Assembly (NCBI RefSeq): GCF_001677475.2
Contig: NZ_CP015229.1
From: Escherichia coli
GTDB lineage: Bacteria > Pseudomonadota > Gammaproteobacteria > Enterobacterales > Enterobacteriaceae
DNA length: 64,000 nucleotides
Strand: one strand, 5' to 3'
The notes below the pieces were generated by a model. That model had not been told where the DNA came from. It saw only the letters and a program-made list of their open reading frames with translations, and did not search any database. Each line of letters opens with the position of its first letter. Position 1 is the stretch's first letter. Below are positions 1,506-32,845 of this stretch, piece after piece. The position numbers and the translations under genes were made by a program.

Positions 1506-1509
1506 TCGG

Positions 1510-2271: not shown

Positions 2272-2292
2272 CAAGGCTGTACTCTGCAATTT

Positions 2293-2327: not shown

Positions 2328-2332
2328 GCGAC

Positions 2333-2965: not shown

Positions 2966-3205
2966 GATGCCGTTGTACCTGGTGACTGTGAATGGAAGGT
3001 TATTATAAAAATAATCACCTCCGTTCACCAGTCCAGAAACCATAAAAATAATTGCTTTCTATTTAACTGAAATTTAAAGGTTTTTAAATTAATTAATGAT
3101 TGTTATAAAAAATATCTTGTATGTGATCCAGATCACATCTATCATTTAGTTATCGATCGTTAAGTAATTGCTTACGACGCCATTCATCTGCATAAGGCCA
3201 CTATT

Positions 3206-3463: not shown

Positions 3464-3544
3464 GCATTAACCCTCATTAATGCCTGCTACTGCTGATTTT
3501 TTCCCCGCGACATGCCGTGTCGCGGGGATTTTTTTATCCGGGCT

Positions 3545-4510: not shown

Positions 4511-4650
4511 AAATCCATAATAAATATAAGGTTATTGTAATAAACAGATAAGCCTGAATTATGGATGGTGACAGTGTCGGATAGTGCAGGGAAGTGCAAA
4601 GAATTTGTAAATGTTGCAGATGGGGGCGCAGAAACGCCCCCGATTTACCA

Positions 4651-7600
4651 TTAAGCGATCGCGTTCTCTTCCAGTTCACGCATAAACTGGCGTACCCATT
4701 CGATACGCGTTTTCCGCTCACTCAAATCCTGAATAAATTTCAGACGCGTCGGACCATCAAGGCGGTAATGCTGCGGCTGTTTTTGCAGCAAACCAATCAA
4801 CCAGGCCGGATTAACGTGATTCTTCTCGGCAAATTCGATCACGCCGCCTTTCTCATTACCTTCCAGCTTCTTGATCCCCAGTTTCTGCGCTTGCTGGCGC
4901 AGACGGGCAATATCCAGCAGGGTACGCGCCGGATCCGGCAGCAAGCCGAAGCGATCGATAAGCTCGACTTTGATCTCTTCCAGTTCGTTTTCCGTTTTGG
5001 CGCTGGCAATACGTTTATAGAACGACAAACGCGTATTCACGTCAGGAATGAAATCATCTGGCAATAGCGACGGCATCCGCAGCTCGACTTCTGTTTGCTG
5101 GCTGGTGAGATCTTCCAGCGACGGCTCGCGTCCGGCTTTCAGCGCATCGACGGCGTTTTCCAGCAACTCCATATACAGCGAGAAACCGATGGTTTCCATT
5201 GAGCCGCTTTGTTCTTCGCCAAGCAGTTCACCCGCGCCGCGGATCTCCAGATCGTGCGTTGCCAGCGCAAAACCTGCACCGAGATCTTCCAGCGAGGCAA
5301 TCGCTTCAAGACGTTTTTGTGCATCGGTAGTCATCGCTTTTGGATGCGGCGTCAGCAGCCATGCATATGCCTGATGATGTGAACGTCCGACGCGACCGCG
5401 CAACTGGTGCAGCTGCGCCAGACCGAAGTGATCCGCGCGTTCAATGATAATGGTGTTGGCTGTCGGGATGTCGATCCCGGTTTCGATTATGGTGGTACAA
5501 ACCAGCACGTTGAAACGTTGATGATGGAAATCATTCATCACCCGTTCCAGTTCGCGCTCACGCATCTGCCCGTGACCGATGGCAATCCGTGCTTCAGGCA
5601 CCAGTTCTGCCAGCCGTTCGGCAGCTTTCTGGATGTTTTCCACATCATTGTAGAGATAATAAACCTGCCCCCCGCGCAAAATTTCACGCAGGATCGCCTC
5701 CCGGACCACCAGACTGTCATACTCACGGACGAAGGTTTTAACTGCCAGACGACGGGCGGGCGGCGTGGCGATAATCGACAGGTCACGCATTCCGCTCATA
5801 GCCATATTCAGCGTACGAGGGATCGGCGTTGCGGTAAGCGTCAGAATATCCACGTTCGCGCGCATCGCTTTAATGCGCTCTTTATGACGCACCCCGAAGC
5901 GGTGTTCTTCATCGACAATCAGCAGACCTAAATCTTTAAACTTGACGTCATTTTGCAGCAGTTTGTGCGTACCGATCAGAATATCGATTTTCCCTTCCGC
6001 CACTTCCGCAAGGATTTGCGTCTGCTCTTTGGCGCTGCGGAAACGGGAGATCATTTCGATACGTACCGGCCAGTTGGCGAAACGGTCGCGGAAGTTGTCG
6101 TAATGCTGCTGCGCGAGAAGGGTGGTAGGCACCAGCACCGCCACCTGCTTGTGGTTATCTACCGCCAGGAAAGCGGCGCGCATCGCCACTTCTGTTTTAC
6201 CAAAGCCAACATCGCCGCACACCAGACGATCCATTGCCAGCGGCTGGCTCATGTCGCTAAGCACCGCATTAATGGCCTGCGCCTGATCCGGCGTGGTTTC
6301 AAACGGGAAGCTGTCGCAGAACAACTGATACTGCTCACGATCGTGTTTAAACGCGAAGCCCTCTTTGGCGGCGCGTTGCGCGTAGATATCCAGCAATTCT
6401 GCCGCCACATCACGCACTTTTTCCGCCGCTTTCTGCCGCGCGCGTGACCACGCATCGCCGCCAAGTTTATGCAGCGGGGCATTTTCTTCCGCGCCACCTG
6501 CGTAACGGCTAATCAGATGCAGTGACGACACCGGAACATACAGTTTGGCGTCGTTGGCATAGGTGAGCATCAAGTACTCGCCAGTAATGCCGCCAGCTTC
6601 CAGCGTGGTCATTCCGGCATAGCGCCCGACGCCGTGCTCCAGATGGACCACCGGCTGACCAATATGCAGCTCCGCGAGGTTGCGGATCAGTGTATCGGGG
6701 TTGATGGTGCGGCGAGAGTCCTGACGACGGCGGGCAACGCGTTCACCGAGCAGATCGCTTTCGCAAATCAGCGCCAGGTTACGCACCGTATCGACAAAAC
6801 CATGTTCGGCAGCGCCAATCATCAGATAACGCCCACGGTCGCTGGCTTCATCAAGACGCATAATGCGTTGCGGAGCAATTTTAATTCGTGCGAGCAGTTC
6901 ACCCAGCGCTTCACGGCGACCTTCACTTTCTACCGAGAATACCACCGGACCGTCGAAAGTCTCGAGGAACTTACGCAGCGTATCCAGCGGCGCTTTTTGT
7001 TGTGCCTGAACGGCCAGGTCTGGCAGTTTCTGGAAACCTAAATTGGAATTCGCGGCTTTTGTCGGTAAATGTTCAGTTTTTAGTTGCACTCGGGGCCAGT
7101 TTTTCAGCTCTGAGAAGAGCTCGTCCACCCGCAGCCAGAGCGATTGTGGTGGCAACAGTGGGCGCATCGGATCGACGCCGCGATTCTCAAAACGCGCCAG
7201 CGTGTCAGCCTGGAAACGTTCGGCACTGTTTTCCAGATCGCCAGTATTCACCAGCAAGGTATTGGCAGGGAAATAACTGAACAGCGGCGGCAGTGGTTCG
7301 CTGAAGAACAATGGCTGCCAGTACTCGATCCCGGCAGGTAATGTGCCTTTACTCACTTGCTGGTAAATATGTTCCGGATCGCGCTTCACTTCGAAGGTAT
7401 CGCGCCACTGGCTGCGGAACAGTTCAATTGCCGCTTTATCGGTCGGAAATTCGTGTGCGGGCAGCAGATTGATCGCTTCTACTTCCTCCAGCGTGCGCTG
7501 GCTGTCGACGTCAAACACCCGCAGGCTGTCGATTTCATCATCAAAGAAATCAAGACGATAAGGCAGCTCACTCCCCATCGGGAAGAGATCCAGCAACGCG

Positions 7601-8097
7601 CCGCGCGTGGCGTATTCGCCGTGCTCCATCACCTGGTCAACATGGCGATAACCGGCGCTGTCCAGTTGGGTTCGTAATGCATCTCGTGACAGGCGCTGAC
7701 CTTTTTTCATCACCAGCGCATGGCCGTGGAGAAAACTGTGCGGGCAAACGCGCTGCATAAGCGTATTCACCGGAACAATCAGTACGCCACGCTGCATCGT
7801 CGGTAGCTGGTAAAGGGTGGAAAGGCGCGAGGAGATAATGTCCTGATGAGGCGAAAAACTGTCGTAAGGGAGGGTTTCCCAGTCCGCCAGATTCATCACC
7901 ATCTGATCGGTGAACTGGCTGATTTCATCATGCAAACGCAGAGCATTTTGCATATCTGGTGCAATGAGTACCACCGGACCGGCGTGACGTTCGGCAATTT
8001 CCGCCACCAGCGTCGCGCAGGCAGCGCCAGTTAACTCGCCCAGCAGACGCTGCTCACCCGCTTTGACGGGCAGCGTATAACGATATTGTTCAGGCAT
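4651..8097 (-). CDS. mfd: Transcription-repair coupling factor Mfd
   Basis: ORF 4651..8160; superfamily-2 helicase motifs (GDVGFGKTE, DEEH), UvrB-homology N-terminus. Start at MPEQYRYTLPV inferred from recalled Mfd. Confidence 0.9.
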   Translation of the reverse strand: MPEQYRYTLPVKAGEQRLLGELTGAACATLVAEIAERHAGPVVLIAPDMQNALRLHDEISQFTDQMVMNLADWETLPYDSFSPHQDIISSRLSTLYQLPTMQRGVLIVPVNTLMQRVCPHSFLHGHALVMKKGQRLSRDALRTQLDSAGYRHVDQVMEHGEYATRGALLDLFPMGSELPYRLDFFDDEIDSLRVFDVDSQRTLEEVEAINLLPAHEFPTDKAAIELFRSQWRDTFEVKRDPEHIYQQVSKGTLPAGIEYWQPLFFSEPLPPLFSYFPANTLLVNTGDLENSAERFQADTLARFENRGVDPMRPLLPPQSLWLRVDELFSELKNWPRVQLKTEHLPTKAANSNLGFQKLPDLAVQAQQKAPLDTLRKFLETFDGPVVFSVESEGRREALGELLARIKIAPQRIMRLDEASDRGRYLMIGAAEHGFVDTVRNLALICESDLLGERVARRRQDSRRTINPDTLIRNLAELHIGQPVVHLEHGVGRYAGMTTLEAGGITGEYLMLTYANDAKLYVPVSSLHLISRYAGGAEENAPLHKLGGDAWSRARQKAAEKVRDVAAELLDIYAQRAAKEGFAFKHDREQYQLFCDSFPFETTPDQAQAINAVLSDMSQPLAMDRLVCGDVGFGKTEVAMRAAFLAVDNHKQVAVLVPTTLLAQQHYDNFRDRFANWPVRIEMISRFRSAKEQTQILAEVAEGKIDILIGTHKLLQNDVKFKDLGLLIVDEEHRFGVRHKERIKAMRANVDILTLTATPIPRTLNMAMSGMRDLSIIATPPARRLAVKTFVREYDSLVVREAILREILRGGQVYYLYNDVENIQKAAERLAELVPEARIAIGHGQMRERELERVMNDFHHQRFNVLVCTTIIETGIDIPTANTIIIERADHFGLAQLHQLRGRVGRSHHQAYAWLLTPHPKAMTTDAQKRLEAIASLEDLGAGFALATHDLEIRGAGELLGEEQSGSMETIGFSLYMELLENAVDALKAGREPSLEDLTSQQTEVELRMPSLLPDDFIPDVNTRLSFYKRIASAKTENELEEIKVELIDRFGLLPDPARTLLDIARLRQQAQKLGIKKLEGNEKGGVIEFAEKNHVNPAWLIGLLQKQPQHYRLDGPTRLKFIQDLSERKTRIEWVRQFMRELEENAIA

Positions 8098-8224
8098 AAC
8101 GGTTGTCAGATTCTCGTTAGGATATGCCTCAACATATGGGGGCATATCTCTGATAAGCAATGCTGTTCATTATCCGTAATCGACATGGTTTAGCAAATTG
8201 AATCGCCCCGGCTGGGGCGATGGC

Positions 8225-9298
8225 TTAGCGGGAGTAACTGACGGCAGCGGGCAGTGAAGGCGGGGAGAACAACAGATCGCTGAATGCACGCTGTGAAAGT
8301 TTTCTTACCAGCAAGCCCGCAACAGTACAGATGAACAAACTGACAAAGGGATAAACCAGCAGGAGTGTCAGTTCGACTTGCGGCGACCAGCGTGCTGCGT
8401 TCATTTGCGCAAGCAGAGTTAAGCTGAATATTTCAACCAGAATGCGATGGGAGGTGTAGATAGCAATGGTGTTGGAGCCAATCACATTCAGCAGGCTGGT
8501 GGAGCGCATACCGAATCGTTGCTCGTATTGATAAAACAGCTTCATGATCACCACAATCGATACCAGCGACAACAGCAGCGAGATAGTAAACAACCAGGCA
8601 CCGACCGCCAGAACGGTCAGCAAAGAAGCCATCAGTAGATGGCGGCGCAACGGCACCTCTTTAACACAGGTCATTAATGTTGCGCCAAACCATGCACCAA
8701 GGCTGTAATAAGGCAAATTGCGGATCACACTGTTCATTCCCCACCACGGCGTGGGAACGAAATTAACCGCCACACTCATCAGTACAAACAAGGCGAATAG
8801 TGGCAGCGCCAGACGGCTAAAAATTTTACATACCACGAAATAGACAATTAACGCATACAGATACCACAAGCTGGTGCTGGCGGTGATCATCCCGTGCAGG
8901 AACTCACCGGTGGAATCGGCATAAGCGGCATTGGAGGCATTGCTTAAATCGCGCTCAGGTGCCAGCCACTGGTTCAGCACACTTAACGCCAGCCACTGCA
9001 CCACGCCCCAAAGCGCCAGCACCCAGAAGATGTTCCAGACCCGTTTATCAAGACAATTTCCCCACGGTACGCTGTCGATATAGCGGCGAATCAAATAGCC
9101 GGATATAAAGAAAAAAACCGGCATACGAAAGGGTGCAAGGTAAAGGTTGAAATAGATCCAGCATTTGCTCAGGACTTCCGATAACGGATGCTGAAAAGTG
9201 GTCATATGCGGATAAAAGGTAATGACCGAGTGATAAATCACCACCAGGCAAATACATAACCCTTTGATCTGGTTAATCCATAGCTCTTTTTGTTTCAT
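8225..9298 (-). CDS. ycfT: Inner-membrane acyltransferase-family protein YcfT
   Basis: 357-aa polytopic membrane ORF at the expected position between mfd and lolC. Confidence 0.75.
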   Translation of the reverse strand: MKQKELWINQIKGLCICLVVIYHSVITFYPHMTTFQHPLSEVLSKCWIYFNLYLAPFRMPVFFFISGYLIRRYIDSVPWGNCLDKRVWNIFWVLALWGVVQWLALSVLNQWLAPERDLSNASNAAYADSTGEFLHGMITASTSLWYLYALIVYFVVCKIFSRLALPLFALFVLMSVAVNFVPTPWWGMNSVIRNLPYYSLGAWFGATLMTCVKEVPLRRHLLMASLLTVLAVGAWLFTISLLLSLVSIVVIMKLFYQYEQRFGMRSTSLLNVIGSNTIAIYTSHRILVEIFSLTLLAQMNAARWSPQVELTLLLVYPFVSLFICTVAGLLVRKLSQRAFSDLLFSPPSLPAAVSYSR

Positions 9299-9448
9299 CA
9301 GGACAACACGCTCTTTTTTAATTTACATGCGGTTGATCCTGCGGGTTATGACCCTATGTGTAATGGGTATCTGTCTGTATTGGATGATTTTTCAGATTAA
9401 GATCAGGCGGCAAGATTGATGATAAAACATGGCACTTTAGCCGATTGA

Positions 9449-12697
<3,249 letters not shown>

Positions 12698-12725
12698 AGG
12701 CAGTACATTAAAACAAGGAGCGGCA

Positions 12726-13637
12726 ATGTATTACGGGTTTGATATTGGTGGAACAAAAATTGCGCTTGGCGTATTTGATAGCAGTCGGCAGTTGCAGTGG
12801 GAAAAGCGGGTGCCGACACCGCGTGACAGCTATGATGCTTTTTTAGATGCAGTATGCGAGCTGGTAGCCGAAGCCGATCAGCGTTTTGGTTGTAAAGGTT
12901 ATGTCGGCATCGGTATTCCGGGAATGCCGGAAACAGAAGATGGCACGCTGTATGCCGCCAATGTCCCCGCTGCCAGCGGTAAACCGCTGCGTGCCGACCT
13001 GAGCGCACGTCTTGAGCGCGATGTACGCCTTGATAACGATGCCAACTGTTTTGCCCTTTCAGAAGCCTGGGATGATGAATTTACCCAATATCCGCTGGTG
13101 ATGGGGTTAATTCTCGGCACCGGCGTTGGCGGTGGACTGGTGTTTAACGGTAAAGCGGTGACGGGTAAAAGCTATATTACCGGCGAGTTTGGTCATATGC
13201 GTCTGCCGGTCGATGCGTTAACCATGATGGGGCTTGATTTCCCATTACGCCGCTGCGGCTGTGGTCAGCATGGCTGCATTGAAAATTATCTGTCTGGTCG
13301 CGGTTTTGCGTGGCTGTATCAACACTATTATCATCAACCGTTGCAGGCTCCCGAAATTATTGCGCTTTATGATCAAGGCGATGAGCAGGCAAGGGCGCAC
13401 GTTGAGCGTTATCTGGATTTATTAGCGGTTTGTCTGGGAAATATCCTGACCATTGTTGACCCTGATTTGCTGGTCATTGGCGGTGGCTTATCGAATTTCC
13501 CGGCAATCACAACGCAACTGGCGGACAGGCTGCCTCGTCATCTCTTACCTGTAGCTCGTGTTCCGCGCATTGAACGCGCGCGCCACGGTGATGCGGGAGG
13601 AATGCGTGGTGCGGCTTTCCTACATCTAACCGATTAA
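12726..13637 (+). CDS. nagK: N-acetyl-D-glucosamine kinase NagK
   Basis: ORF 12666..13637; ROK-family motifs ([23 protein letters not shown] zinc site). Start at MYYGFD inferred. Confidence 0.85.
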
Positions 13638-13652
13638 ACAACAGAGGTTGCT

Positions 13653-14474
13653 ATGCTGTCGCGTCGGGGTCATCGGTTAAGTCGTTTTCGTAAAAATAAA
13701 CGCCGCCTGCGCGAGCGTTTGCGTCAGCGTATTTTTTTCAGAGATAAAGTGGTGCCGGAAGCAATGGAAAAACCAAGAGTACTCGTACTGACAGGGGCAG
13801 GGATTTCTGCGGAATCAGGTATTCGTACCTTTCGCGCCGCAGATGGCCTGTGGGAAGAACATCGGGTTGAAGATGTGGCAACGCCGGAAGGTTTCGATCG
13901 CGATCCTGAACTGGTGCAAGCGTTTTATAACGCCCGTCGTCGACAGCTGCAGCAGCCAGAAATTCAGCCTAACGCCGCGCATCTTGCGCTGGCTAAACTG
14001 CAAGACGCCCTCGGCGACCGCTTTTTGCTGGTGACGCAGAATATCGATAACCTGCATGAACGCGCAGGCAATACCAATGTGATTCATATGCATGGAGAAT
14101 TGCTGAAAGTACGTTGTGCGCAAAGCGGGCAGGTTCTCGACTGGACTGGTGATGTTACGCCAGAAGATAAATGTCATTGCTGCCAGTTTCCGGCTCCGCT
14201 GCGCCCGCACGTGGTGTGGTTTGGCGAAATGCCGCTTGACATGGATGAAATTTATATGGCACTGGCGATGGCGGATATTTTCATTGCCATTGGCACATCC
14301 GGGCATGTTTATCCGGCTGCCGGTTTTGTTCATGAAGCAAAATTGCATGGCGCGCACACCGTGGAACTCAATCTTGAGCCGAGCCAGGTTGGTAACGAAT
14401 TTGCCGAGAAATATTACGGCCCGGCAAGCCAGGTGGTGCCAGAGTTTGTTGAAAAGTTGCTGAAGGGATTATAA
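13653..14474 (+). CDS. cobB: NAD-dependent protein deacylase (sirtuin) CobB
   Basis: Sir2 motifs ([25 protein letters not shown], CxxC...CHCC). C-terminus ends ...EKLLKGL; the recalled KAGSIA tail sits in the +1 frame. Confidence 0.85.
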
Positions 14475-14484
14475 AGCAGGAAGC

Positions 14485-14605
14485 ATTGCCTGATGCGCTA
14501 CGCTTATCAGGCCTACAAGGGGACGCAATTAATTGAATTTGCGGGTTTTGTGGGCCGGATAAGGCGTTCGCGCCGCATCCGGCATAATACACGCGCATTT
14601 TACTG
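14485..14605. repeat. REP elements downstream of cobB
   Basis: Seen in sequence: GCCTGATGCGCTACGCTTATCAGGCCTAC and GCCGGATAAGGCGTTCGCGCCGCATCCGGCA, typical REP palindromes. Confidence 0.5.
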
Positions 14606-14611
14606 CCTCTT

Positions 14612-15400
14612 TTACCGTTTACTCGTCAATAACAACGCGGCAATAAACGTACAGACACCAATCAGCCCTGCCCAGAGTGGCGATATTCTGGTAATTGCAA
14701 AGCTATTATCGATATACAGGCATAAAGCCTGATAGCCCATATTGGCAACAGTCATCGCCACTGCAAATTTTAATGCATAAATAAAACGAGTCGTGTAGTA
14801 AAAGACCGAGGAAAATAAGATAAACGTCGCAGCCCAGGCGATAAAACCTAATGTGTTGGTACTGCCGGGGGGATCATTTTCATGCTGTTGTCCTGGATGC
14901 GGATAATACGTCAGTGGCGGCGTCGGTTGTTTTAATATCTGTACTTGTAGAACAGCCAATGCATTATTGATTCCCTGATACCATAGGCCAGCATGTAAAT
15001 AAGCCAGCGTGTGATTTTCTATCAGAAGGCCGAGATGTTTATCGTCCAGACCGCTTTCAACCTGGCCATTGGTGATCATAATTAACCGTGGTTCGCGGGT
15101 AGTAAATAGTAACAGAACACTTCCTTTTACATCACTCAATGAAGATGACGCATGCGCCAGCATCGCTTTACCATTTTGTCTGAGACTGGCTTCATTATTA
15201 ATGTCGGGTAAAACCACAATAAACGGTGCAACTCCGGTTTGTTGGCGAAAAAGCTCGGCTTTATGCGCGATCTCTTCAGCATCTGGTACAGTACCGGTAA
15301 CATCCGTAAAAAGTGTCTTCATTATTGGAATTAATGGTTTGCTGGCTGCTGTCAGAGGCAGGAGTATCAGTAAACTGAGCAGTATTATGATTTTTTTCAT
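14612..15400 (-). CDS. ycfZ: Inner-membrane protein YcfZ
   Basis: 262-aa ORF with signal/TM segments, in expected synteny. Confidence 0.7.
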
Positions 15401-15858
15401 GGGCGGGACTTCCGTTTCCTGCGAGATTTTTTGGTGGAGGGGAGAGTGATTATCAGACCGACACTACCGAAAATAATGCCTGCTATGCCAACAAAGCCCC
15501 ATTTAAAAAAATTAACCCAGGGATTGTTTATTTCGGCTTGTTCTGGATGCCCTGGCGGATAATAGACATTGACTCTGCCACCTTCGCTATCTTCATAAAA
15601 ATCACTACCGATACTCGAATTGAAAATTAGCGTGTAATCTGGCGTAGGGCGAAAGGCAACCACTGGATACCAGGAGCCATTATCACCGACGTCGTTTGAG
15701 TGATTGTTGTACCAAACGACATCAACAATGATTCCTTCTGTATGAACCGCGCTTTTGGTAAAAGTAAAATGGTAACAAAAGATAATTGCAGAAATAACGA
15801 GCAATATCAGACCGATACCGAGAAAAGCGTGGGATAACACTTTACTGTCCTGACTCAT
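15397..15858 (-). CDS. ymfA: Inner-membrane protein YmfA
   Basis: ORF 15397..15900; start at [10 protein letters not shown] inferred (153 aa). Confidence 0.7.
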
Positions 15859-15915
15859 TAGCCACATCCTTGCTAAATAAAAAACGGGCGGTAATACCAC
15901 CGCCCGTTTGCTGAA

Positions 15916-16962
15916 TTAACGTCCTGCTTTCAGCTTCTGATAATACTCTTCATAAATGCTGCTGGCTGCGCCAACGTCATTCTGCCATTCACCATTTTTA
16001 ATGGTTTCAGCATCCGGGTAGAGCGTTTTATCGTTCGCCACTTCCGGGCTTAACAGCTTACGCGCCGCAAGGTTTGGCGTTGGATAACCGATAGTTTCGG
16101 CAACCTGTTTTGCCACATCCGGGCGCAGCAGGAAGTTGATCAGTTTCAGCGCGCCTTCTTTGTTTTTGGCATTCGCCGGAATTGCCAGGCTGTCCATCCA
16201 GAAAATGCCGCCTTCTTTCGGCCACACGACGTCAATTGGTGTACCCGCCTGGCGTGCAACGAAAGCAGAACCGTTCCAGATCATGCCGAGGTTAACTTCG
16301 CCTTCCATGTACGGGTTAGCCGGGTTATCGGAGTTAAACGCTGCGACGTTTGGCATCAGTTTTTTCAGCTCGTTATATGCAGCTTCAATCTCTTTCGGAT
16401 CGGTGGTGTTACCGGAATAGCCCAGCTTACGCAGCGCCATCTGGAACACTTCACGGGCATCGTCGGTCAGCAGCAGGCTGCCTTTGTACTCAGGCTTCCA
16501 CAGATCGGCCCAGCTGGTAACGGATTTCGGATCCACCGCATCACCGTTAACGCCAATCGCCGTCGCACCCCAGATATACGGAATGGAGTAGTCGTTATTC
16601 GGGTCAAAAGGCTTGTTGAGCATGTCTGGATCGAGATTGCTGAAGTTCGTTAACTTCGACTTGTCGATCTTCTGGATCATCCCTTCTTTACGCATTTTAT
16701 CGACGTAATAGGTTGAAGGAACCACCAGGTCATAGGCACCGTCTTTGTACGTTTTCAGCTTGGCATACATGGTTTCGTTCGACTCGTAAGTCGAATAGAT
16801 AACCTTAATACCGGTTTCTTTGGTGAACTGTTCAAGCAGTCCTGGCGGCACGTACTCGGTCCAGTTGTAGAAATACAGCGTGTTGTTGTCATCGGCGTGA
16901 GCGGCGCTCATGCCCAGTGCCAGAGCACCCGCCGCGAGCAGGTGGCGTGACCATTTTTTCAT
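15916..16962 (-). CDS. potD: Spermidine/putrescine ABC transporter periplasmic binding protein PotD
   Basis: 348-aa ORF with signal peptide; solute-binding protein in the pot operon. Confidence 0.9.
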   Translation of the reverse strand: MKKWSRHLLAAGALALGMSAAHADDNNTLYFYNWTEYVPPGLLEQFTKETGIKVIYSTYESNETMYAKLKTYKDGAYDLVVPSTYYVDKMRKEGMIQKIDKSKLTNFSNLDPDMLNKPFDPNNDYSIPYIWGATAIGVNGDAVDPKSVTSWADLWKPEYKGSLLLTDDAREVFQMALRKLGYSGNTTDPKEIEAAYNELKKLMPNVAAFNSDNPANPYMEGEVNLGMIWNGSAFVARQAGTPIDVVWPKEGGIFWMDSLAIPANAKNKEGALKLINFLLRPDVAKQVAETIGYPTPNLAARKLLSPEVANDKTLYPDAETIKNGEWQNDVGAASSIYEEYYQKLKAGR

Positions 16963-17753
16963 TTAACGTCCCCTGTGTTACCTTTCGTTTTATCACGAGC
17001 AATAAGCTGGCTGGCAATAACCATCACCAGCGACAGCACCAGTAATATGGTTGCCAGCGCGTTAACTTCCGGCGATACGCCGACTTTGACCATCGAATAA
17101 ATTTTTAACGGCAGAATTTCATAACTTGGTCCGGTGACGAACGAAGAAACTACCACATCGTCCATCGACAGGGTAAAGCTTAACACCCAGCCCGCCGCTA
17201 CCGCTGGCATTGCCAGTGGCAGAATGATTTTTCGCAGAATGGTAAATTCGCTGGCACCGAGATCTTTCGCCGCTTCCAGCATTCGCACGTCAAAACCTTT
17301 CAGGCGCGAATACACTGTCACCACCACAAATGGCAGGCAGAAGGTGATATGCGAGAACAGCAGCGACCAGAAGCCAAGCTGAATACCCAGCAGCATAAAC
17401 AGCACCAGCAGCGAAATCGCCATCACGATATCTGGTGACATCATCACTACAAACAGCATTCCGCTAACGAACGGCTTACCACGAAAGCGATAACGGTACA
17501 GTGCAACTGCCGTCAGTGAACCGATAAGCGTAGCAAACGTCGCCGAAAACACCGCCATTGTTAGTGAATGCTGCGCTGCCTGTAACAGGCTGTCGTTGTT
17601 CATCAGCAGGCTATACCATTTGGTGGTAAAACCCTGCCAGTTGATGCCAAAGCGCGAGCTGTTAAAGGAGTTCACAATCAAAATAATGATTGGGATATAC
17701 AGGTACGCGTAGATAGCGGTCATAAAACCGCCGCGAAGCAGTCGACCGATCAT
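16959..17753 (-). CDS. potC: Spermidine/putrescine ABC transporter permease PotC
   Basis: 264-aa polytopic permease; start ATG overlaps the potB stop (ATGA). Confidence 0.9.
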   Translation of the reverse strand: MIGRLLRGGFMTAIYAYLYIPIIILIVNSFNSSRFGINWQGFTTKWYSLLMNNDSLLQAAQHSLTMAVFSATFATLIGSLTAVALYRYRFRGKPFVSGMLFVVMMSPDIVMAISLLVLFMLLGIQLGFWSLLFSHITFCLPFVVVTVYSRLKGFDVRMLEAAKDLGASEFTILRKIILPLAMPAVAAGWVLSFTLSMDDVVVSSFVTGPSYEILPLKIYSMVKVGVSPEVNALATILLVLSLVMVIASQLIARDKTKGNTGDVK

Positions 17754-17800
17754 TCGAGTTCCACCTTCTTATTCATAAGGCGGGACACTTTCAGGATTTT
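17750..17800 (-). other. potB: 3'-terminal remnant of potB abutting the prophage left end (attL region)
   Basis: Minus-strand frame ending ...KVSRLMNKKVELE with stop overlapping potC start. No full-length potB upstream; the integrase gene follows within ~170 bp. Boundary is inferred. Confidence 0.5.
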
Positions 17801-17919
17801 GAATTTATTCAATTTTTTCCTTTCTCCAAAATCTCTCCAAAACGTTTCCCCAAAACTAGGCCACGCATTTTACAACACTTTTTTCCTGAGATGGTGACGG
17901 ATATTCCATATGGTGTTTG

Positions 17920-19038
17920 TCAAATAACCAACTTAACCCATTCCTGACCTCGAGTATCGTTATAGCGATCGGTGGTTGCCTGGACTTTATGTCCTAGTAA
18001 TGTTTTTGTATCGATACCCTGTGCACGGTACAGCCGTTCTGATAGAGAGCGTTGTTCATGAAATGTTGGCGGAGTTTTTCCTGCTGGTGGAATTATCCCA
18101 GCCAGATCCCGTGCTTTGGCAAAGTAGTCGCTCAGGTTGTCTTTACTCATCGACTTCGGTTGTTTCTGGTGCCGACTATGGATTAGATATGGACTTAATA
18201 TTCTGTCTCGGCACCCATCAATAACTTCTTTTAACGTTATCCCAATGGCATCACAGCGTAGTGTAAGCGGTAACGCCAGACGCATTCCGGTTTTTCCTTG
18301 GGTGATATGCAAGTGTTCGTTCCACACATCTGAAAAACGCATGTGGCAAATGTCATCACGGCGCTGACCAGTAACAATCGCAAGAAGCATTGCGTTACGG
18401 ATAAAGTGTTTTTCAGGCGTTGCGTTGTAAATTTTTTGCCAGTCTTCCAGGGTGAGTCTGGCTCTGGTTACTTTAGGGATTGGTTTACGGGTAGCCTCCG
18501 GAGGATTCCATCCAGGAGGAACTTCCCCTGCATGCTGTGCTTCTTTATAAATATCAAGCCATAATCCGCGATTTACTCTCGCTGTGCTGACCATGTCTTT
18601 ATCCAGCCACTCATCCAGTATTAATGCAAAGTCTCTTACTTCCAGTTCTTTCAATGGGTGGTTTCCCAGACGGGAAACCAGGAATGCAGCCATTCGCGCT
18701 TTTTCTTTGTGGGTTGTAGCTGCAATATCTCCATTTTTCAGGCGCGCGTCCTGTATTTTCAGATATCGATCAACCCATGCCTTTAATCTGATACCCCGAC
18801 GTTTTGTTGCTGATGGACTTTCATCAATTTTGCGCATGAAATATTCAGCTTCTGCTGCAGCTATTCGCTGATTGGCTGTGGAAGCGATTTTTTCTGCCTT
18901 ACCTTTGTCTGTTCCGAGTCCGTGAAATTTTCCAGTCACAGGATTTTTATACTGGTAGTAAACTCTGCCAGTTCTGCGATCAAACTTTTCGTAAAGACCG
19001 GCTACGTCAGTGCTGTTTTTTCGTGGCCTCGGTGACAT
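17920..19038 (-). CDS. int: Phage integrase (tyrosine recombinase)
   Basis: 372-aa ORF with C-terminal tyrosine-recombinase catalytic region (R...HxxR...Y), next to the disrupted host gene. Confidence 0.85.
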   Translation of the reverse strand: MSPRPRKNSTDVAGLYEKFDRRTGRVYYQYKNPVTGKFHGLGTDKGKAEKIASTANQRIAAAEAEYFMRKIDESPSATKRRGIRLKAWVDRYLKIQDARLKNGDIAATTHKEKARMAAFLVSRLGNHPLKELEVRDFALILDEWLDKDMVSTARVNRGLWLDIYKEAQHAGEVPPGWNPPEATRKPIPKVTRARLTLEDWQKIYNATPEKHFIRNAMLLAIVTGQRRDDICHMRFSDVWNEHLHITQGKTGMRLALPLTLRCDAIGITLKEVIDGCRDRILSPYLIHSRHQKQPKSMSKDNLSDYFAKARDLAGIIPPAGKTPPTFHEQRSLSERLYRAQGIDTKTLLGHKVQATTDRYNDTRGQEWVKLVI

Positions 19039-19276
19039 GAGTTAAAATCTCCTTCAGTGCATCATCATCGCCAGTATGAATTTCCGGCGCAATTCCCGTT
19101 TCACCAGGCCCAACAAATACTGCTCGGCGATCTATCAGCCAACGCCCACGAATTTTTTGTGGTCTTGGAACGATGTATCCTAGTTTTCCGTATTTCACCA
19201 GGGTAGTGTTTGTTATTGGGAGACTGAACCGTTTTGGTTTCCACTCGTCGAGCGTTATCAGGTACTGTTCGCTCAT
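19007..19276 (-). CDS. xis: Excisionase (Xis-like)
   Basis: Small basic ORF directly upstream of and overlapping int (LITLDEWKPKRFSLP...). Start choice inferred. Confidence 0.55.
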   Translation of the reverse strand: MSEQYLITLDEWKPKRFSLPITNTTLVKYGKLGYIVPRPQKIRGRWLIDRRAVFVGPGETGIAPEIHTGDDDALKEILTHVTEATKKQH

Positions 19277-19337
19277 GGCTATCACTCCGGAACGCGCCAG
19301 TTGCAGAATATCAACGACAACTGGCGACGGTTGAACA

Positions 19338-21809
19338 TTAAAAATCAGCCTGATTCGGGATCAGTTTTTGCCAGATAGCTGAAACGTATTTTGCCTGGTG
19401 ACGAGCGTCATCAAGTGCATTATGGCGCTCACCTTCGAATGGGATAGCAGTTCTGGCATCGAAGTCTATGGTTTTCCCCAGCTCAACGATTGTGCGTACA
19501 TCGCGATCGTTGTAGTAACGCCACGGGCAGGGGATCCCCTGCCGTTCGTATGAACGGCGCAAAATCGTGTTGTCGAAGTTGGCTCCATTTCCCCAGACCT
19601 GAACAAAAAACTCACCGGAGTTTTCGGCGATAAATTCCCGCAATTGCAGTAGTGCATCATCTAACGGGATTTCATCGGTCATAATGGCAGACTGCGCTTC
19701 ACGTGATTGCTTCAGCCACCATTTAATGACGTCACGATCAATGACTCCGCCAGCAGTATCCAGATCGATGGTCTTGCTAAATTCCGGTCCCATATCACCG
19801 GTTTGCGGATCGAAAAATATTGCACCTATTGAGATAATCGGGGCATCAGGATTTTTTCCCATGGTTTCAAGGTCGATCATCAGATGAATCCCCGCTCTGC
19901 TGGTGGATGTGAGATTATGATGACTGTTCATCTTAATTAAGGGATCTGTCGCCTCGCCAGTTTTATTATCGCTGGCGTGATGCTGATTGCCGCCAGGGTT
20001 CTCCTTGTGTGGATGTTCAGCGCCTTCCATTTCCTCCGGATCATTTTCCTGAACTTCAGGCTGATTCTCTTCATCGAATATTTCCTGGTATGTTGCGTCA
20101 CCCATCACCGCGCCACAATCAGGGCAGTTGCCGCCACCGCTCTGACCGCAGGCTGTGCAGACTTTTTCCGGTTCCTGTTGCGCTACTGGCTCAGGTTGTT
20201 TCGTTTCTGGCTCGTTTTGTTGCGTATTTGGGCTGTTTTGTTCCGCTTTCTGGTCGTTCTGTTCCGTTTCTTGCTGGTTCTGGTTCACAGAATCGCGGGT
20301 TTCAATCCCCTTCACCCATTTCGGATCATTCGGATCGCTAATCCCTGCAACAAATTCACCACGTGATACTGCAAGCAGTTCATCGGCGTCATGCTGGCTG
20401 ATATTGGCTGCCTGCATAATTTTGTTTACTTCGTCAGCGGTAACTTTTACCGGCCCTGGTTGTGCGGTCGTGTCAGATGCACCAGTATTTTGTTGTGAAC
20501 CTGAGTATGTACCGTTTTTGCGGGCGAAATATTCTTCTTTCGTGATTTCAGTAGCCCCGGCAGCCAGTGCCTTATCCAGACCAGAAAGTTTGTTTGCGCG
20601 ACCGTATTTTTCGCCATCCTTGTCGGTGAAGAGGAAGTAGAATGGCCCCTCACGCTCTACAGATGGTTCGACTTCCACTTTGCATTCGGTTTTTTCGTTG
20701 TCCGGAATTGCCGTTTCCACTGCATCAGTTTCTGGTACTGGCGACGAGAGAGTATCAGTTGCGCTCTGATTTCTTCCTTCATCTTCAAACACGCCCTTTG
20801 TAGTCAGGTATTCAGTAATGTATTTGTTCAGTGCCACAGGGTCTTTGTGAATGTCGATCGGACGTTCACGAACAAGGCCAAAAATAGTCTGGCGGTCGTA
20901 GCGAAGGGCATCAGGCTGTTTGCGCATTGATGCCGAGATACGCTTCCAGTCTTCGCGGTCGTTGTCGATAACTTCATTTTTTGCCCAGCGATGGATGCTG
21001 CCATCAATGTTTCCGACATCCACATCACCAGGCCAGAGAGCGTAGGCCAGTTCGTCATCCAGTGTTTTCCATGTCTGCTTGTATTCGCGATGAGTGGCAG
21101 CAATGACCGGGCTGATTTTTCCTGTTGAATTTTCAGTGTGCTGTTGATTGGCTCTGGCGCGGGCGAGATCAACAACAGACGTGTATTTTCCGGTTTCCTT
21201 GCGTTCACCTTCGCGACGTTTTTTCCAGATGCGCATCTCTGCCTGAATTTCGGGCCATTTGGCACCAGGCTTACATTTATGCTTAACCCACCCGATGGCA
21301 TGCAGCTTAAGCTCCGGATACATGGCGTTAACTTCTGGCATTTTCATCAACGCTTCAACGATATGTCCGTCGAATGTTGCCATGTCTTCCTGCAACAATT
21401 CCTGCGCGCTAATCACCATATCAACGGTGATGTTTTCACATGTACCGAACTTAACCAGGACCGCGTTCTGTACTTCAAGGGACAGCTTGTCAAAATTGAC
21501 GTTAATAGGATCGGATTCTGGTTCGACCGGAATAAAGGAAGCGGATTCCTCATCCCAGCGGTTTTCCTGCATATATTCGGTATCCCAGGAGTCGATAGCA
21601 GGGCGGGGCATGCCGGGTTTATCTTCGCAGACAAGAAATTTATAAGCGCAGTCCTGAGCAGCAGGATATTGCTCCAGGAATTGCCAGGTAAATTTGGCAC
21701 GGGCGCGGCGTTCATCACCGGCTTCAATGGCAGTGGCTACAGCAACTGCGCCCTCTTCTTTTATTGCCTGTTCGTCCGGAATGGCGGCGCAAATAAAGAC
21801 TTTACTCAT
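19338..21809 (-). CDS. Large phage exonuclease: acidic/Q-rich linker, zinc ribbon, C-terminal DnaQ-like (DEDDh) 3'-5' exonuclease domain
   Basis: 823-aa ORF. C-terminus has LMIDLETMG...GANFDNTIL...HNALDDARH motifs; CTACGQSGGGNCPDCG zinc ribbon mid-protein. Functional name inferred. Confidence 0.6.
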   Translation of the reverse strand: MSKVFICAAIPDEQAIKEEGAVAVATAIEAGDERRARAKFTWQFLEQYPAAQDCAYKFLVCEDKPGMPRPAIDSWDTEYMQENRWDEESASFIPVEPESDPINVNFDKLSLEVQNAVLVKFGTCENITVDMVISAQELLQEDMATFDGHIVEALMKMPEVNAMYPELKLHAIGWVKHKCKPGAKWPEIQAEMRIWKKRREGERKETGKYTSVVDLARARANQQHTENSTGKISPVIAATHREYKQTWKTLDDELAYALWPGDVDVGNIDGSIHRWAKNEVIDNDREDWKRISASMRKQPDALRYDRQTIFGLVRERPIDIHKDPVALNKYITEYLTTKGVFEDEGRNQSATDTLSSPVPETDAVETAIPDNEKTECKVEVEPSVEREGPFYFLFTDKDGEKYGRANKLSGLDKALAAGATEITKEEYFARKNGTYSGSQQNTGASDTTAQPGPVKVTADEVNKIMQAANISQHDADELLAVSRGEFVAGISDPNDPKWVKGIETRDSVNQNQQETEQNDQKAEQNSPNTQQNEPETKQPEPVAQQEPEKVCTACGQSGGGNCPDCGAVMGDATYQEIFDEENQPEVQENDPEEMEGAEHPHKENPGGNQHHASDNKTGEATDPLIKMNSHHNLTSTSRAGIHLMIDLETMGKNPDAPIISIGAIFFDPQTGDMGPEFSKTIDLDTAGGVIDRDVIKWWLKQSREAQSAIMTDEIPLDDALLQLREFIAENSGEFFVQVWGNGANFDNTILRRSYERQGIPCPWRYYNDRDVRTIVELGKTIDFDARTAIPFEGERHNALDDARHQAKYVSAIWQKLIPNQADF

Positions 21810-21902: not shown

Positions 21903-22094
21903 TTAAAGTCCTGCCGGTATTTCGTTATTATTAGTGTGAGTAGTTTTATCTACCGGATAACAGTTACCGGGAATTTTTTGTTCTGCTGCTGCAGCCATGC
22001 ATTCTTTCATTGAACCGTATAAGCCAGTCACCAGCTCAAGAGATTCGCCGGAAACAAGATAAACTGTCAGAACGAGTGCAAATGTTGTATTCAT
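21903..22094 (-). CDS. Hypothetical small protein (63 aa) with N-terminal hydrophobic segment
   Basis: ORF only; 4-bp overlap with upstream dicB-like gene suggests translational coupling. Confidence 0.35.
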   Translation of the reverse strand: MNTTFALVLTVYLVSGESLELVTGLYGSMKECMAAAAEQKIPGNCYPVDKTTHTNNNEIPAGL

Positions 22095-22279
22095 TGTTTA
22101 TATCCTTTTTGCAGCAGGTCCAGACGAGCCAGCATTGAAGGAATGCATACTTCATTTAACAGGTCCTGCTCGAGTTTTCTCTGCTTAATGGCGTCTTCAA
22201 TAAATGTTTTGTCTCCAGTGATAACGCCAATTTCGAAACGAAGTTCAGACGTGCTGGCATTACATGATAACTTTTCCAT
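22091..22279 (-). CDS. dicB: DicB-like cell-division inhibitor
   Basis: Internal start of ORF 22091..22384 gives a 62-aa protein (MEKLSCNASTSELRFEIGVITGDKTFIEDAIKQRKLEQDLLNEVCIPSMLARLDLLQKGYKQ) closely resembling recalled Qin DicB. Confidence 0.75.
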   Translation of the reverse strand: MEKLSCNASTSELRFEIGVITGDKTFIEDAIKQRKLEQDLLNEVCIPSMLARLDLLQKGYKQ

Positions 22280-22450: not shown

Positions 22451-22508
22451 AAAAAGGGCGGCAGAGCAGTCACGGAGTAAAACTGATACCGCCAAATGTC
22501 ACCAGAAT
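22451..22508 (-). ncRNA. dicF: DicF-like small regulatory RNA
   Basis: Minus-strand sequence ATTCTGGTGACATTTGGCGGTATCAGTTTTACTCCGTGACTGCTCTGCCGCCC + T-run matches recalled E. coli DicF except 2-3 nt; lies ~170 nt upstream of dicB as in Qin. Confidence 0.7.
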
Positions 22509-22856: not shown

Positions 22857-23303
22857 ATGGACCGGGATGATATTCTTGACAGAATTTTTTATGGCTATTT
22901 TCTTGAGCAACTGTTTTCTGTAGCGACTGGTCGTCTCGATAAACTTCTCTCAGTAGTGAGTATTATCCTCGGTTCATCTGTCATTGGCGGATTCATTCCG
23001 GAAATTTCTGGCGTTTTTATTGTTGTGATCGCAACCGTCCAAACGATTTATGGATTCGGACAAAAGTCAGGTAATACCATGAGAAAATCCGCAGAATATT
23101 TGCAGCTTTTTGATGATGCAGAAAAATATTCTGATTCGGAATTGAAAATTCAGTTAAAAACTCTGGAAAAAACAGATGATCATATTTGGTCATCACTTAA
23201 AGATATTGCGATCTTAAAAACACAGATCAAAATAGGCGTCTCCATCGAACAACAAGAGAAGTTGCCCACAAAATCCAAATTGATGCGATTTCTTTGTGGT
23301 TAG
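22857..23303 (+). CDS. Hypothetical membrane protein, transcribed opposite to the early-left operon
   Basis: 148-aa ORF with one strongly hydrophobic segment; AT-rich relative to flanks; TATAAT at ~22784 and RBS-like AGGTGA upstream. Function unknown. Confidence 0.45.
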   Translation: MDRDDILDRIFYGYFLEQLFSVATGRLDKLLSVVSIILGSSVIGGFIPEISGVFIVVIATVQTIYGFGQKSGNTMRKSAEYLQLFDDAEKYSDSELKIQLKTLEKTDDHIWSSLKDIAILKTQIKIGVSIEQQEKLPTKSKLMRFLCG

Positions 23304-24241: not shown

Positions 24242-24718
24242 TTAAGTTCCTGTCTTGGTGATGTTCTGGCTTTTCCGTTTTGATTCTTGATTTTTCAGAT
24301 AGTTAGCTACCTTCATTTCCATTGCGGCAATGTAGGCGCGAACGTCATGATCAACCCAACTAGGCTCCGTAGCATTTCCAGATAAGAGGAAAGCCACAAT
24401 TGCTCTTTTTTCATCAGAGGCGGCTTGATAAAGGCTGTTTATGTCTAAAAGTTCACTTTTTGTATCTGAAGTGGATGGGGTTGGTATGGGGTATTCGTTA
24501 AGCCCCCAATGCTCTGGACCAACCACATCAGAAAAGAAACGCCATAGTTCTGGAAGTTTGTCTTTACTTATCGAACCTTTCTTAATCCAGTCATGGATTG
24601 ATGGTGGTTGGACTTTGAAATGACGTGCGATTTCCGCCTTTGATTTGACGGCTCCTGATGCAATTTTTTTGTTAATGGCCTGCTCTATCGCTCGGCCTAA
24701 GTCTTTACCACTAAGCAT
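24242..24718 (-). CDS. Phage repressor, XRE-type HTH, no S24 peptidase domain (RacR-like size)
   Basis: 158-aa ORF; N-terminal HTH (SKAEIARHFKVQPPSIHDWIKKGSISKDKLPEL); divergent from cro-like gene; C-terminus lacks Ser/Lys peptidase motifs. Confidence 0.7.
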   Translation of the reverse strand: MLSGKDLGRAIEQAINKKIASGAVKSKAEIARHFKVQPPSIHDWIKKGSISKDKLPELWRFFSDVVGPEHWGLNEYPIPTPSTSDTKSELLDINSLYQAASDEKRAIVAFLLSGNATEPSWVDHDVRAYIAAMEMKVANYLKNQESKRKSQNITKTGT

Positions 24719-31423: not shown

Positions 31424-32473
31424 GTGCGGGTATTACTTCGACCTGTTCCGGTGCCGGAACTCGGGCTGGTGGTCCTTAAGCCGGGCCGTGAATCCATGCA
31501 GGTATTTCATAACCCTCGAGTGCTGGTGGAGCCGGAACCGAAAAGCATGCGCGGTCTGCCGTCCGGAGTTGTTCCTGCCGTTCGCCAGCCGCTGGCGGAA
31601 GATAAATCATTGCTGCCATTTTTCAGCGACGAACGGGTGATTCGTGCTGCCGGCGGCGCTGGTGCACTGTCTGACTGGCTCCTGCGTCATGTTAAATCCT
31701 GCCAGTGGCCTCATGGTGACTACCATCACAGTGAAACCGTCATACATCGTTACGGTACCGACGCGATGGTGTTGTGCTGGCACTGCGACAACCAGCTGCG
31801 TGACCAGACCTCAGAATCACTTGAGCAACTTGCTCAACAAAACCTGACAGCATGGATGATTGACGTCATCCGTCACGCAATAAGCGGTGCGCAGGAGCGG
31901 GAATTATCGCTGGCTGAATTATCCTGGTGGGCTGTCTGCAATCAGGTGGCGGACGCACTACCGGAGGTAGTATTACGTCGTTCTCTGGGGTTACGTGCGG
32001 AAAAAATTCGCTCGGTGTACCGCGAAAGCGACATCATACCGGGAGAGCAGACAGCCACCAGCATACTGAAGCAGCGCACAAAAAATATTGTGCTATCGCC
32101 TCACGTCCACCAGCAACAGAACTCACCGCAGGAAAAGGCGGTTGTCAGCATTGCTGTTGATCCGGAGTCTCCGGAATCTTTCATGAAGCGACCTAAACGT
32201 CGCCGTTGGGTAAATGAGAAATACACTCGCTGGGTAAAGACACAGCCGTGTGCGTGTTGTGGTCAACCAGCCGACGATCCCCATCACCTGATTGGTCATG
32301 GTCAGGGCGGAATGGGAACAAAATCCCACGATATTTTCACGCTACCGCTGTATCGGGAGCATCACAACGAGCTTCATGCGGATCCGCTGGCGTTCGAAGA
32401 AAAGCATGGTTCCCAGATTGATTTAATTTTTCGTTTTCTTGATCGCGCCTTTGCAACCGGCGTGCTCGGGTAA
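31424..32473 (+). CDS. DUF968-like phage protein with C-terminal Cys/His cluster
   Basis: 349-aa ORF; C-terminal CACCGQPADDPHHLIGHGQGGMGTKSHD...REHHNELH resembles the DUF968 family found upstream of rusA/Q. Family assignment from memory. Confidence 0.45.
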   Translation: MRVLLRPVPVPELGLVVLKPGRESMQVFHNPRVLVEPEPKSMRGLPSGVVPAVRQPLAEDKSLLPFFSDERVIRAAGGAGALSDWLLRHVKSCQWPHGDYHHSETVIHRYGTDAMVLCWHCDNQLRDQTSESLEQLAQQNLTAWMIDVIRHAISGAQERELSLAELSWWAVCNQVADALPEVVLRRSLGLRAEKIRSVYRESDIIPGEQTATSILKQRTKNIVLSPHVHQQQNSPQEKAVVSIAVDPESPESFMKRPKRRRWVNEKYTRWVKTQPCACCGQPADDPHHLIGHGQGGMGTKSHDIFTLPLYREHHNELHADPLAFEEKHGSQIDLIFRFLDRAFATGVLG

Positions 32474-32485: not shown

Positions 32486-32845
32486 ATGCGTATAGAATTT
32501 GTTTTGCCTTACCCGCCGACGGTGAACACCTACTGGCGACGCCGTGGCAGCACGTATTTTATATCGGAAGCCGGTAAGCGTTATCGCCGTGATGTGGCAC
32601 TTATTGTTCGCCAGCAGCGGCTGAAATTAAATCTGTCCGGAAGGCTGGCGATAAAGGTTATCACAGAGCCGCCGGATAAGCGCCGTCGTGATCTGGACAA
32701 TATCCTGAAAGCACCGCTGGATGCGCTGACGCATGCGGGGCTTCTCATAGACGACGAGCAGTTTGATGAAATCAATATTGTGCGCGGTCTGCCTGTTCCT
32801 GGTGGGCGGCTGGGGATAAAAATCACAGAGCTGGAGTGCGCATGA
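32486..32845 (+). CDS. rusA: Holliday-junction resolvase RusA
   Basis: 119-aa ORF aligning by eye with E. coli RusA (PYPPTVNTYWRRRG, RRRDLDN, GRL...ITE). Confidence 0.8.
   Translation: MRIEFVLPYPPTVNTYWRRRGSTYFISEAGKRYRRDVALIVRQQRLKLNLSGRLAIKVITEPPDKRRRDLDNILKAPLDALTHAGLLIDDEQFDEINIVRGLPVPGGRLGIKITELECA

Follow-up and report, generated by a model that had tools for sequence, protein, structure and literature searches.

RecE of the Rac prophage of Escherichia coli K-12 is a 5′–3′ exonuclease of double-stranded DNA, built from an Exonuc_VIII N-terminus and a PD-(D/E)XK nuclease domain, and the gene next to its own encodes RecT. DexA of phage T4 is a 3′–5′ DNA exonuclease that prefers single-stranded DNA (PMC12153337). 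A third term of comparison is provided by the lambdoid phages of the LLS type, which a 2025 paper (PMC12315714) describes as having no Rec module and as rich in Chi sites, frequently with a cluster at the right end; RecBCD assists the type phage, LLS, in its growth. The same paper mentions DnaQ-like 3′–5′ nucleases, which occur within certain Rec modules or now and then close to int, and "RecE-2" proteins that have no nuclease domain, in both cases with the role given as unknown. Here we analyze a gene of a lambdoid prophage of E. coli that is related to all of these. It lies at 19338..21809, on the minus strand of the window, that is, of the whole stretch of 64,000 nucleotides under analysis (contig NZ_CP015229.1 of assembly GCF_001677475.2). 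As judged from its sequence, its product is a mosaic made of a YdfE-type N-terminus, a middle region similar to RecE (residues 278–591 of the latter), and a C-terminal DEDDh exonuclease domain nearest to T4 DexA. This fold predicts 3′–5′ polarity, as opposed to the 5′–3′ activity of RecE.

The DEDDh domain occupies residues 641–823 (19341..19889, minus strand). It matches the Rv2179c-like family of Pfam (PF16473) over residues 642–813, with E = 4.5e-66 and 222.4 bits for a cutoff of 27, and the match runs over positions 2–177 of the 177 of the profile. The catalytic residues D646, E648, D746, H796, and D801 are invariant across nine sequences, which include T4 DexA and seven phage homologs, and they align with D7, E9, the Exo II aspartate, H186, and D191 of DexA. 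When the single protein was searched against PDB with phmmer, only T4 DexA was found (8KEL, E = 8e-6). Foldseek also placed T4 DexA on top (8KEN/8KEL, E around 3e-11, template modeling score of 0.65–0.72 on the target), and this with a model whose alignment did not include DexA. A search of PDB with a family profile was also made, but the profile contained DexA, whose score is thus inflated and partly circular, and the phmmer and Foldseek results are relied on instead. The domain is 56%–62% identical to free-standing versions from enterobacterial phages, and about 22% identical to DexA. One of the free-standing homologs, gp29 of the P22-like phage g341c (56% identity), is encoded between ssb and abc2, beside erf. 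Because the only sequence match in PDB, which is also the best structural one, is a DNA enzyme, and because the homolog in g341c sits among ssb, abc2, and erf, the substrate is probably DNA rather than RNA.

The name of the Pfam family, "Rv2179c-like 3′–5′ exoribonuclease," would lead one to the other expectation, namely that the protein degrades phage or host RNA, and NCBI labels many copies of the gene "3′–5′ exoribonuclease." After DexA, the structural matches were RNase T, DnaQ domains, 3′hExo, and oligoribonuclease (Orn), some of them in line with such an activity, and the operon also encodes a small RNA, DicF. DEDDh enzymes often act on both DNA and RNA, which means that the substrate cannot be read from the name of the family. 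No chain of Rv2179c itself figures among the PDB matches at E ≤ 0.01, even with the family profile. DexA, the nearest relative both by sequence and by structure, acts on DNA; the scaffold to which the domain is joined is that of a nuclease of DNA recombination; and the free-standing copy of the domain is found among erf, ssb, and abc2. An exoribonuclease is, in consequence of these points, an unlikely reading of the gene, and a DNA exonuclease is the one followed below.

Upstream of the nuclease domain, the protein is related to RecE, up to a sharp limit. A BLASTP comparison with K-12 RecE aligns residues 262–625 with RecE 278–591 (E = 3e-61, 39% identity overall), and from residue 476 on, across the zinc ribbon and the acidic tail, the identity rises to about 80%. 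At the nucleotide level, codons ~475–625 correspond to Rac recE codons ~455–591 with 77% identity, and there the match ends; the RecE residues past 591, which form the catalytic domain, gave no significant alignment by BLASTP or tblastn. The NCBIfam equivalog of ExoVIII (RecE), NF007259, scores 275 bits for a cutoff of 1269, with residues 237–626 placed on positions 260–603 of a profile of 877. The 823-residue protein has no match to DUF3799, the PD-(D/E)XK domain that is on record for true RecE (approximately at 564–866), and none to Exonuc_VIII (PF06630) at E ≤ 1, its N-terminus being of the YdfE type instead. Since residues 262–625, including the zinc ribbon, are homologous to the noncatalytic region of RecE, the protein has a RecE-type scaffold bearing a swapped nuclease.

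The junction itself carries two further traces. The free-standing phage homologs start with "MN.LMIDLETMG," and this start aligns with residue 641, just after an internal "KMN" of the acidic linker, which fits a once-separate gene joined in frame. A Chi site (GCTGGTGG) lies at 19899..19906 on the plus strand, over codons S635-T636-S637, in the linker that separates the last RecE-like residues from the DEDDh domain. Its position, 561 nucleotides from the stop codon, is kept in all three carriers (the window, phage mEp460, and phage 813R8; in the loci of the other carriers it is found at 27009 of L030 and at 30821, minus strand, of L031). That a recombination hotspot falls precisely on the junction of the swap may be fortuitous, or the site may have favored the exchange of modules. 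Phage 813R8 gives a further comparison: from about codon 453 to past xis, the window is 94% identical to it in nucleotide sequence, and the N-terminus of the 813R8 protein is of the RecE type, 92% identical to that of Rac.

The first-pass annotation of this DNA had described an open reading frame of 823 residues adjoining xis, with a long N-terminal region, a Q/E-rich low-complexity linker, an acidic linker, a CxxC...CPDC zinc ribbon, and a C-terminal DnaQ-like DEDDh exonuclease domain. All these elements were recovered, by domain searches and by structure prediction. The frame is exact (823 codons and a stop, minus strand, ATG start), and phrog_2082 ("exonuclease") covers residues 1–823 of the 823. 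In two AlphaFold models, the protein resembles beads on a string, with residues 1–206, 245–343, and 386–436 ordered, disordered linkers between them, a ribbon (approximately 545–567) of moderate confidence, and a DEDDh domain (639–823) in which the predicted local distance difference test (pLDDT) exceeds 90. The models thus depict a modular protein, in which the DEDDh domain would come after three ordered modules of the scaffold, the two-helix element, and the zinc ribbon, joined by disordered linkers.

The first of these modules (residues 1–206; 21192..21809, minus strand, as are all segments that follow) is of the YdfE type and is alpha/beta plus helical. The second (245–343; 20781..21077; pLDDT around 88) is all-helical and is common to RecE, falling largely within the aligned region, and the ratio of nonsynonymous to synonymous substitutions (dN/dS) is 0.08–0.34 along it. 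The third (386–436; 20502..20654; pLDDT 82–90) combines a beta-hairpin and a helix; it is missing from K-12 RecE, where it corresponds to a gap in the alignment, its dN/dS is 0.07–0.21, and the consensus of 15 diverse homologs shows in it the motif GPFYF...GRANK...EI(T/S)xEEY. A two-helix element follows (456–499; 20313..20444; pLDDT 72–77), with the motif SRGEFVxGISDPNDPKWVKGI conserved in RecE, which has a nearly identical counterpart at 465–485. The low-complexity linker (500–544; 20178..20312) is rich in Q, E, and N and is predicted to be disordered (pLDDT < 50). The zinc ribbon CTACGQSGGGNCPDCG (549–567; 20109..20165; pLDDT 57–78) has its CxxC...CxxC cysteines at C551, C554, C562, and C565; its counterpart in RecE is CNACGQTGGDNCPDCG, at 518–533, in which CxxC...CPDCG is kept, and it matches the Pfam double zinc ribbon model (DZR) only weakly (E = 0.13). 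The acidic linker (568–640; 19890..20108) is predicted to be disordered over 568–636 and contains the end of the RecE homology, at residue 625; residues 561–600 include 13 D/E and not one K or R. When compared with three homologs, the whole gene has a dN/dS of 0.20–0.32, which indicates that the frame did not arise by chance; the ordered modules have values of 0.07–0.34, and those of the linkers reach 0.84. Hence, the gene is under purifying selection.

To collect relatives, 1.84 billion representative proteins were searched exhaustively, and ten long relatives were scanned with Pfam. The family is combinatorial. In addition to the form found in the window, there are five proteins with an Exonuc_VIII N-terminus and a DEDDh domain, one (P0139) with a YdfE N-terminus and PD-(D/E)XK, and others with a YdfE N-terminus and no recognizable nuclease. 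Distant relatives, at 45%–50% identity, have the same DEDDh architecture behind another N-terminus. The YdfE_C domain is on record for P0050, a protein of the same composition as that of the window, and is faintly matched in P0135, which is of the Exonuc_VIII type. The neighboring genes follow the nuclease. RecT comes next to Rac RecE (Exonuc_VIII N-terminus and PD-(D/E)XK), and the gene of P0139 overlaps, stop with start, a RecT-like gene (phrog_561, E = 3.5e-101). Downstream of the Exonuc_VIII and DEDDh combination (813R8, P0135), and equally of the YdfE and DEDDh combination (the window, mEp460, and five places carrying P0050), one finds only xis and int, and these are directly next to every DEDDh version examined. 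Among the few relatives examined, then, a RecT-like gene goes with PD-(D/E)XK and is absent after DEDDh, whichever the N-terminus.

Other relatives show different associations. P0129 (702 residues; loci L025–L027) has a YdfE-type N-terminal half followed by another C-terminal region (phrog_26058), in which no nuclease is recognizable, and xis-int is directly next; proteins of this type may be the nuclease-less "RecE-2" proteins, as these are presented in the available part of PMC12315714. In the Vibrio phage VP585, ORF33 (L020, 3306–4268) is a distant DEDDh homolog with an N-terminal CxxC...CxxC ribbon (CNKCGG...CNQCG) and a C-terminal extension; the presence there of both a ribbon and a DEDDh domain suggests that this pairing arose more than once. 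A fixed annealase partner of the free-standing homologs was also looked for, in seven phage contexts, and no general rule emerged: the order is erf-ssb-exo-abc2 in g341c, cas4-type exonuclease-x-exo-DNA polymerase in RcRios, and exo-xis-int in 118970_sal3, and the contexts in PhiR40_1, VP585, Enc34, and PAE1 are uninformative.

The absence of a partner recombinase, which the first-pass annotation had remarked on beside the gene, extends to the remainder of the element as far as it was searched. The tblastn searches of the whole window with K-12 RecT, with Bet, Exo, and Gam of lambda, and with RalR, RcbA, and RacC gave nothing better than E = 0.02. PHROG scans of 20 open reading frames from the early-left and replication/nin regions (the late region was left out) found no family of annealases or single-strand binding proteins (SSB), and no annealase, SSB, or anti-RecBCD gene is listed in the annotated closest prophage or in the complete genome of mEp460. 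Together with the domain composition described above, this shows that the gene is not a standard RecE accompanied by its partner.

The same element is rich in Chi sites. The prophage part of the window (46 kb) contains 12 in the plus orientation, which is the one active for RecBCD, vs 2 in the other, and a second-order Markov model predicts approximately 2.6 and 0.9, respectively. Ten of the 12 are clustered between 25410 and 41679 (plus strand), on the right-hand arm of the virion map, just ahead of the terminase genes (40891–43487) and at them, and none is found in the 22 kb of structural genes (41.7–64 kb), the prophage possibly running past the end of the window. The corresponding counts, in the equivalent orientation, are 7 vs 2 in mEp460 and 8 vs 4 in 813R8, and no Chi is present in the examined parts of Rac and of the early-left region of lambda. 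The LLS class is defined by at least four Chi sites in the active (top-strand) orientation and few in the other, and the prophage has 12 and 2. The host flank (1–17919) has 7 sites in the plus orientation vs 1, the same polarity as in the prophage, which is the usual strand bias of E. coli. Given the existence of a class of Chi-rich lambdoid phages that use the RecBCD of the host, the lack of a recombinase is to be expected in the element of the window.

These data lead us to a proposal to which we give about an even chance: the protein would be a tethered 3′–5′ DNA exonuclease acting on phage DNA ends alongside the RecBCD and RecA proteins of the host. The gene would be an alternative allele of recE-recT, at the place that these occupy in Rac as the last slot before xis-int. 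The 5′–3′ nuclease of the PD-(D/E)XK type and its cognate RecT would form one exchangeable unit, which a single DEDDh domain would replace in frame at a domain boundary. A phage in which this unit has been replaced would be left without a single-strand annealing pathway of its own and, being rich in Chi like the LLS class, would most likely need the host proteins RecBCD and RecA for its recombination-dependent growth. The enzyme might then digest the 3′ ends of DNA as the RecE-type scaffold holds it at the site where RecE works, and a plausible task would be to trim 3′ tails or flaps, and thereby to make the ends of phage DNA sufficiently blunt for the loading of RecBCD. This idea rests on older genetics, according to which RecBCD needs ends made blunt by the single-strand exonucleases of E. 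coli. A nuclease exchanged on a common scaffold, a RecT lost along with it, and a background rich in Chi form a coherent picture. A broader version, which we regard as improbable, would have the RecE/YdfE scaffold as a general platform delivering nucleases to one DNA structure or host factor, with the DEDDh form as a helper of RecBCD and Chi that trims 3′ tails. If this were true, the DEDDh form would be the functional opposite of Gam, and one would have an explanation for the existence of 3′–5′ nucleases in phages that seek the help of RecBCD instead of inhibiting it.

Several points weigh against this proposal. The abundance of Chi characterizes the element as a whole and is no proof that this gene takes part. 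The association of RecT with one type of nuclease was established on few independent loci, and the varied contexts of the free-standing homologs, as for example beside the DNA polymerase of RcRios, suggest that the domain may have several roles. Fold searches with the scaffold gave no clue to its function, and no study of function came up in the literature on ydfE, on CP-933P, on mEp460, or on Rv2179c in phages. Finally, as PMC12315714 remarks, the usual effect of 3′–5′ exonucleases is to inhibit recombination, since they destroy the 3′ end that invades, and a role in helping RecBCD is therefore not the obvious expectation.

One could instead view the protein as a nuclease of defense or superinfection exclusion, which would, like EcD ("HREX"), destroy modified DNA brought in by infecting phages. 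The domain is homologous to DexA, and EcD, an E. coli homolog of DexA, is reported to cut DNA containing 5-hydroxymethylcytosine (5hmC) and to protect against T4 (PMC12153337). The extreme prevalence of the gene in E. coli would suit such a function, and its operon neighbor DicB protects against phage infection, according to the title of a preprint. This reading, which we consider unlikely, meets several obstacles. The residues W152 and D169 of DexA, reported to read 5hmC, align with Y766 and T780 of the window protein (the second in a poorly aligned loop) and are thus not conserved, a weak negative that gives no support to a 5hmC reader of the HREX type. PADLOC found only a generic match to a Cas-associated DEDDh protein (E = 3e-5) and no known defense protein. 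The gene is also distal in the early-left operon, below a region under repressor control, so that its expression in lysogens is not obvious; the sequenced phage mEp460 retains it; and a defense nuclease would leave unexplained the RecE-like scaffold of about 640 residues.

A much less probable alternative is that of an annealing recombinase similar to RecET, in which annealing would be ensured by the long N-terminal region or by a gene that is unrecognized or unlinked. The slot and the scaffold are common to RecE, the first 640 residues have no assigned function, and full-length RecE is reported to be better than its nuclease domain alone in linear-linear recombination (PMC11611040); the fold searches offer it no support. 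That the gene is a decaying and functionless remnant, left when recombination removed the RecE nuclease and recT, is suggested by the many defective prophages and by the K-12 copy cut by IS2, but this is largely refuted by the dN/dS values, with the ordered modules as the most constrained, by 823 codons and a full catalytic pentad in the window copy and in the homologs compared, by the recurrence of the architecture with a different N-terminus in distant relatives, by the presence of the gene in mEp460, and by that of at least 80% of it in 3,532 complete genomes.

The gene is indeed very abundant. At least 80% of it is found at approximately 90%–97% identity in 3,532 of 5,426 complete E. coli genomes (about two thirds), and a single cluster of proteins at 90% identity has 23,183 member sequences. 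Phage mEp460, whose complete genome has been deposited, contains the whole gene and encodes a protein 94% identical to that of the window. Current Pfam records YdfE_N (PF27430), YdfE_C (PF27432), and the Rv2179c-like domain for P0050, which is 92% identical over its full length. In the Qin prophage of DH1, a strain of the K-12 lineage, only nucleotides 1–767 are left (92% nucleotide identity), after dicB and ydfD, and IS2 follows. This remnant identifies the gene of the window as an unbroken version of ydfE, a pseudogene in K-12. Catalogs already include the family, as phrog_2082, in Pfam (YdfE_N, YdfE_C, and Rv2179c-like), and under NCBI names; it is neither new nor a new kind of system.

The surrounding genes, all on the minus strand unless otherwise indicated, confirm this placement. 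The excisionase gene xis (19007–19285; named excisionase, DUF1233, in relatives) is directly downstream, 52 nucleotides after the stop codon, and it is followed by the integrase gene int (17920–19038) at the prophage's left end, adjoining potC. Since xis and int abut the host genes potC, potD, ymfA, ycfZ, and cobB, this is the E. coli chromosome, with a lambdoid prophage inserted beside potC. Directly upstream is a YdfD-like gene (21903..22094; phrog_1092, and DUF1482/YdfD in relatives), preceded by dicB (22091..22279), which is matched by phrog_1251 over residues 36–97 of an open reading frame of 97 and has DicB at the same place in relatives. The DicF small RNA (22456..22507; Rfam RF00039, 77 bits for a gathering score of 48, E = 3e-16) lies upstream of dicB as in K-12 Qin. 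Further upstream are a site resembling a leftward promoter (24133–24105; 11/12 in a promoter scan, a consensus match only) and a repressor of the RacR type (24242..24718), annotated as racR in a relative. In the direction of transcription, the order is DicF, dicB, ydfD-like, exonuclease, xis, and int, which is the layout of the K-12 Qin operon. The presence of DicF makes the exonuclease gene the distal member of an early-left operon of the dicBF type, and, as DicF is upstream of dicB, this operon is complete and ends in an intact gene of the ydfE type.

Elsewhere in the element, an open reading frame of 148 residues (22857–23303, plus strand) runs against the early-left operon and is flanked by dicF and the ydfA/B/C-like genes. 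It has a long hydrophobic stretch resembling two membrane helices and matches phrog_6315, with no Pfam match and no meaningful PADLOC match, and it may be a moron. On the plus strand, a DUF968/HNH-like protein of 349 residues (31424–32473), whose gene contains two of the three opposite-strand Chi sites of the window (32055 and 32107), is followed by an open reading frame of 119 residues (32486–32845) that occupies the position of the RusA resolvase in the closest annotated prophage; the two would be the sole other recombination-related genes of the element. Between the Q antiterminator and the lysis genes, a protein of 237 residues (34082–34795, plus strand) with a C-terminal AraC-type helix-turn-helix (Pfam HTH_18, E = 5.6e-10) may be a cargo regulator. 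The head genes include one (44999–47167, plus strand) that encodes, in 722 residues, a fusion of a ClpP-like prohead protease with the major capsid protein (Pfam CLP_protease and Phage_capsid_4), the type found in Gifsy-2, mEp213, and LLS.

As a discovery, the gene has little weight, being part of a catalogued family that some two thirds of the complete E. coli genomes carry. Its value is that of an experimental handle, as it is very abundant and its relatives constitute a natural swap of two scaffolds and two nucleases, with or without RecT. Such a set could reveal the role of the unexplained N-terminal part of RecE, of some 600 residues, and also how Chi-rich phages devoid of a recombinase manage their DNA ends. 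A complete phage genome with the gene exists in mEp460, which makes it a suitable system.

In conclusion, the locus shares features with each of four described systems and is identical to none. With YdfE of K-12 Qin, it has in common the neighbors dicF, dicB, and ydfD, the position in the operon, and the first 767 nucleotides, but the K-12 copy is cut by IS2 after approximately 255 codons whereas that of the window is complete. With RecE of Rac, it shares the slot of last early-left gene before xis-int, a similar length, and the homologous noncatalytic region with the zinc ribbon and the acidic tail; unlike RecE, it has no PD-(D/E)XK domain (DUF3799), no Exonuc_VIII N-terminus, and no RecT, and its nuclease would be of the opposite polarity class. 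Its C-terminal 183 residues have the fold and the DEDDh residues of T4 DexA and of the free-standing phage exonucleases, but these are stand-alone proteins of 180–230 residues, and in the window the domain ends a RecE/YdfE scaffold of about 640. With the LLS-type phages, the prophage shares the lack of any annealase, SSB, or anti-RecBCD gene in the searches made, the orientation of the Chi sites, perhaps also their clustering rightward, and a fused protease-capsid gene similar to that of Gifsy-2, and it differs from them in keeping a large nuclease gene beside xis. In its lack of an annealase and in its Chi counts, it corresponds to two classes of PMC12315714, "no Rec module" (class A) and "nuclease only" (Tritos).

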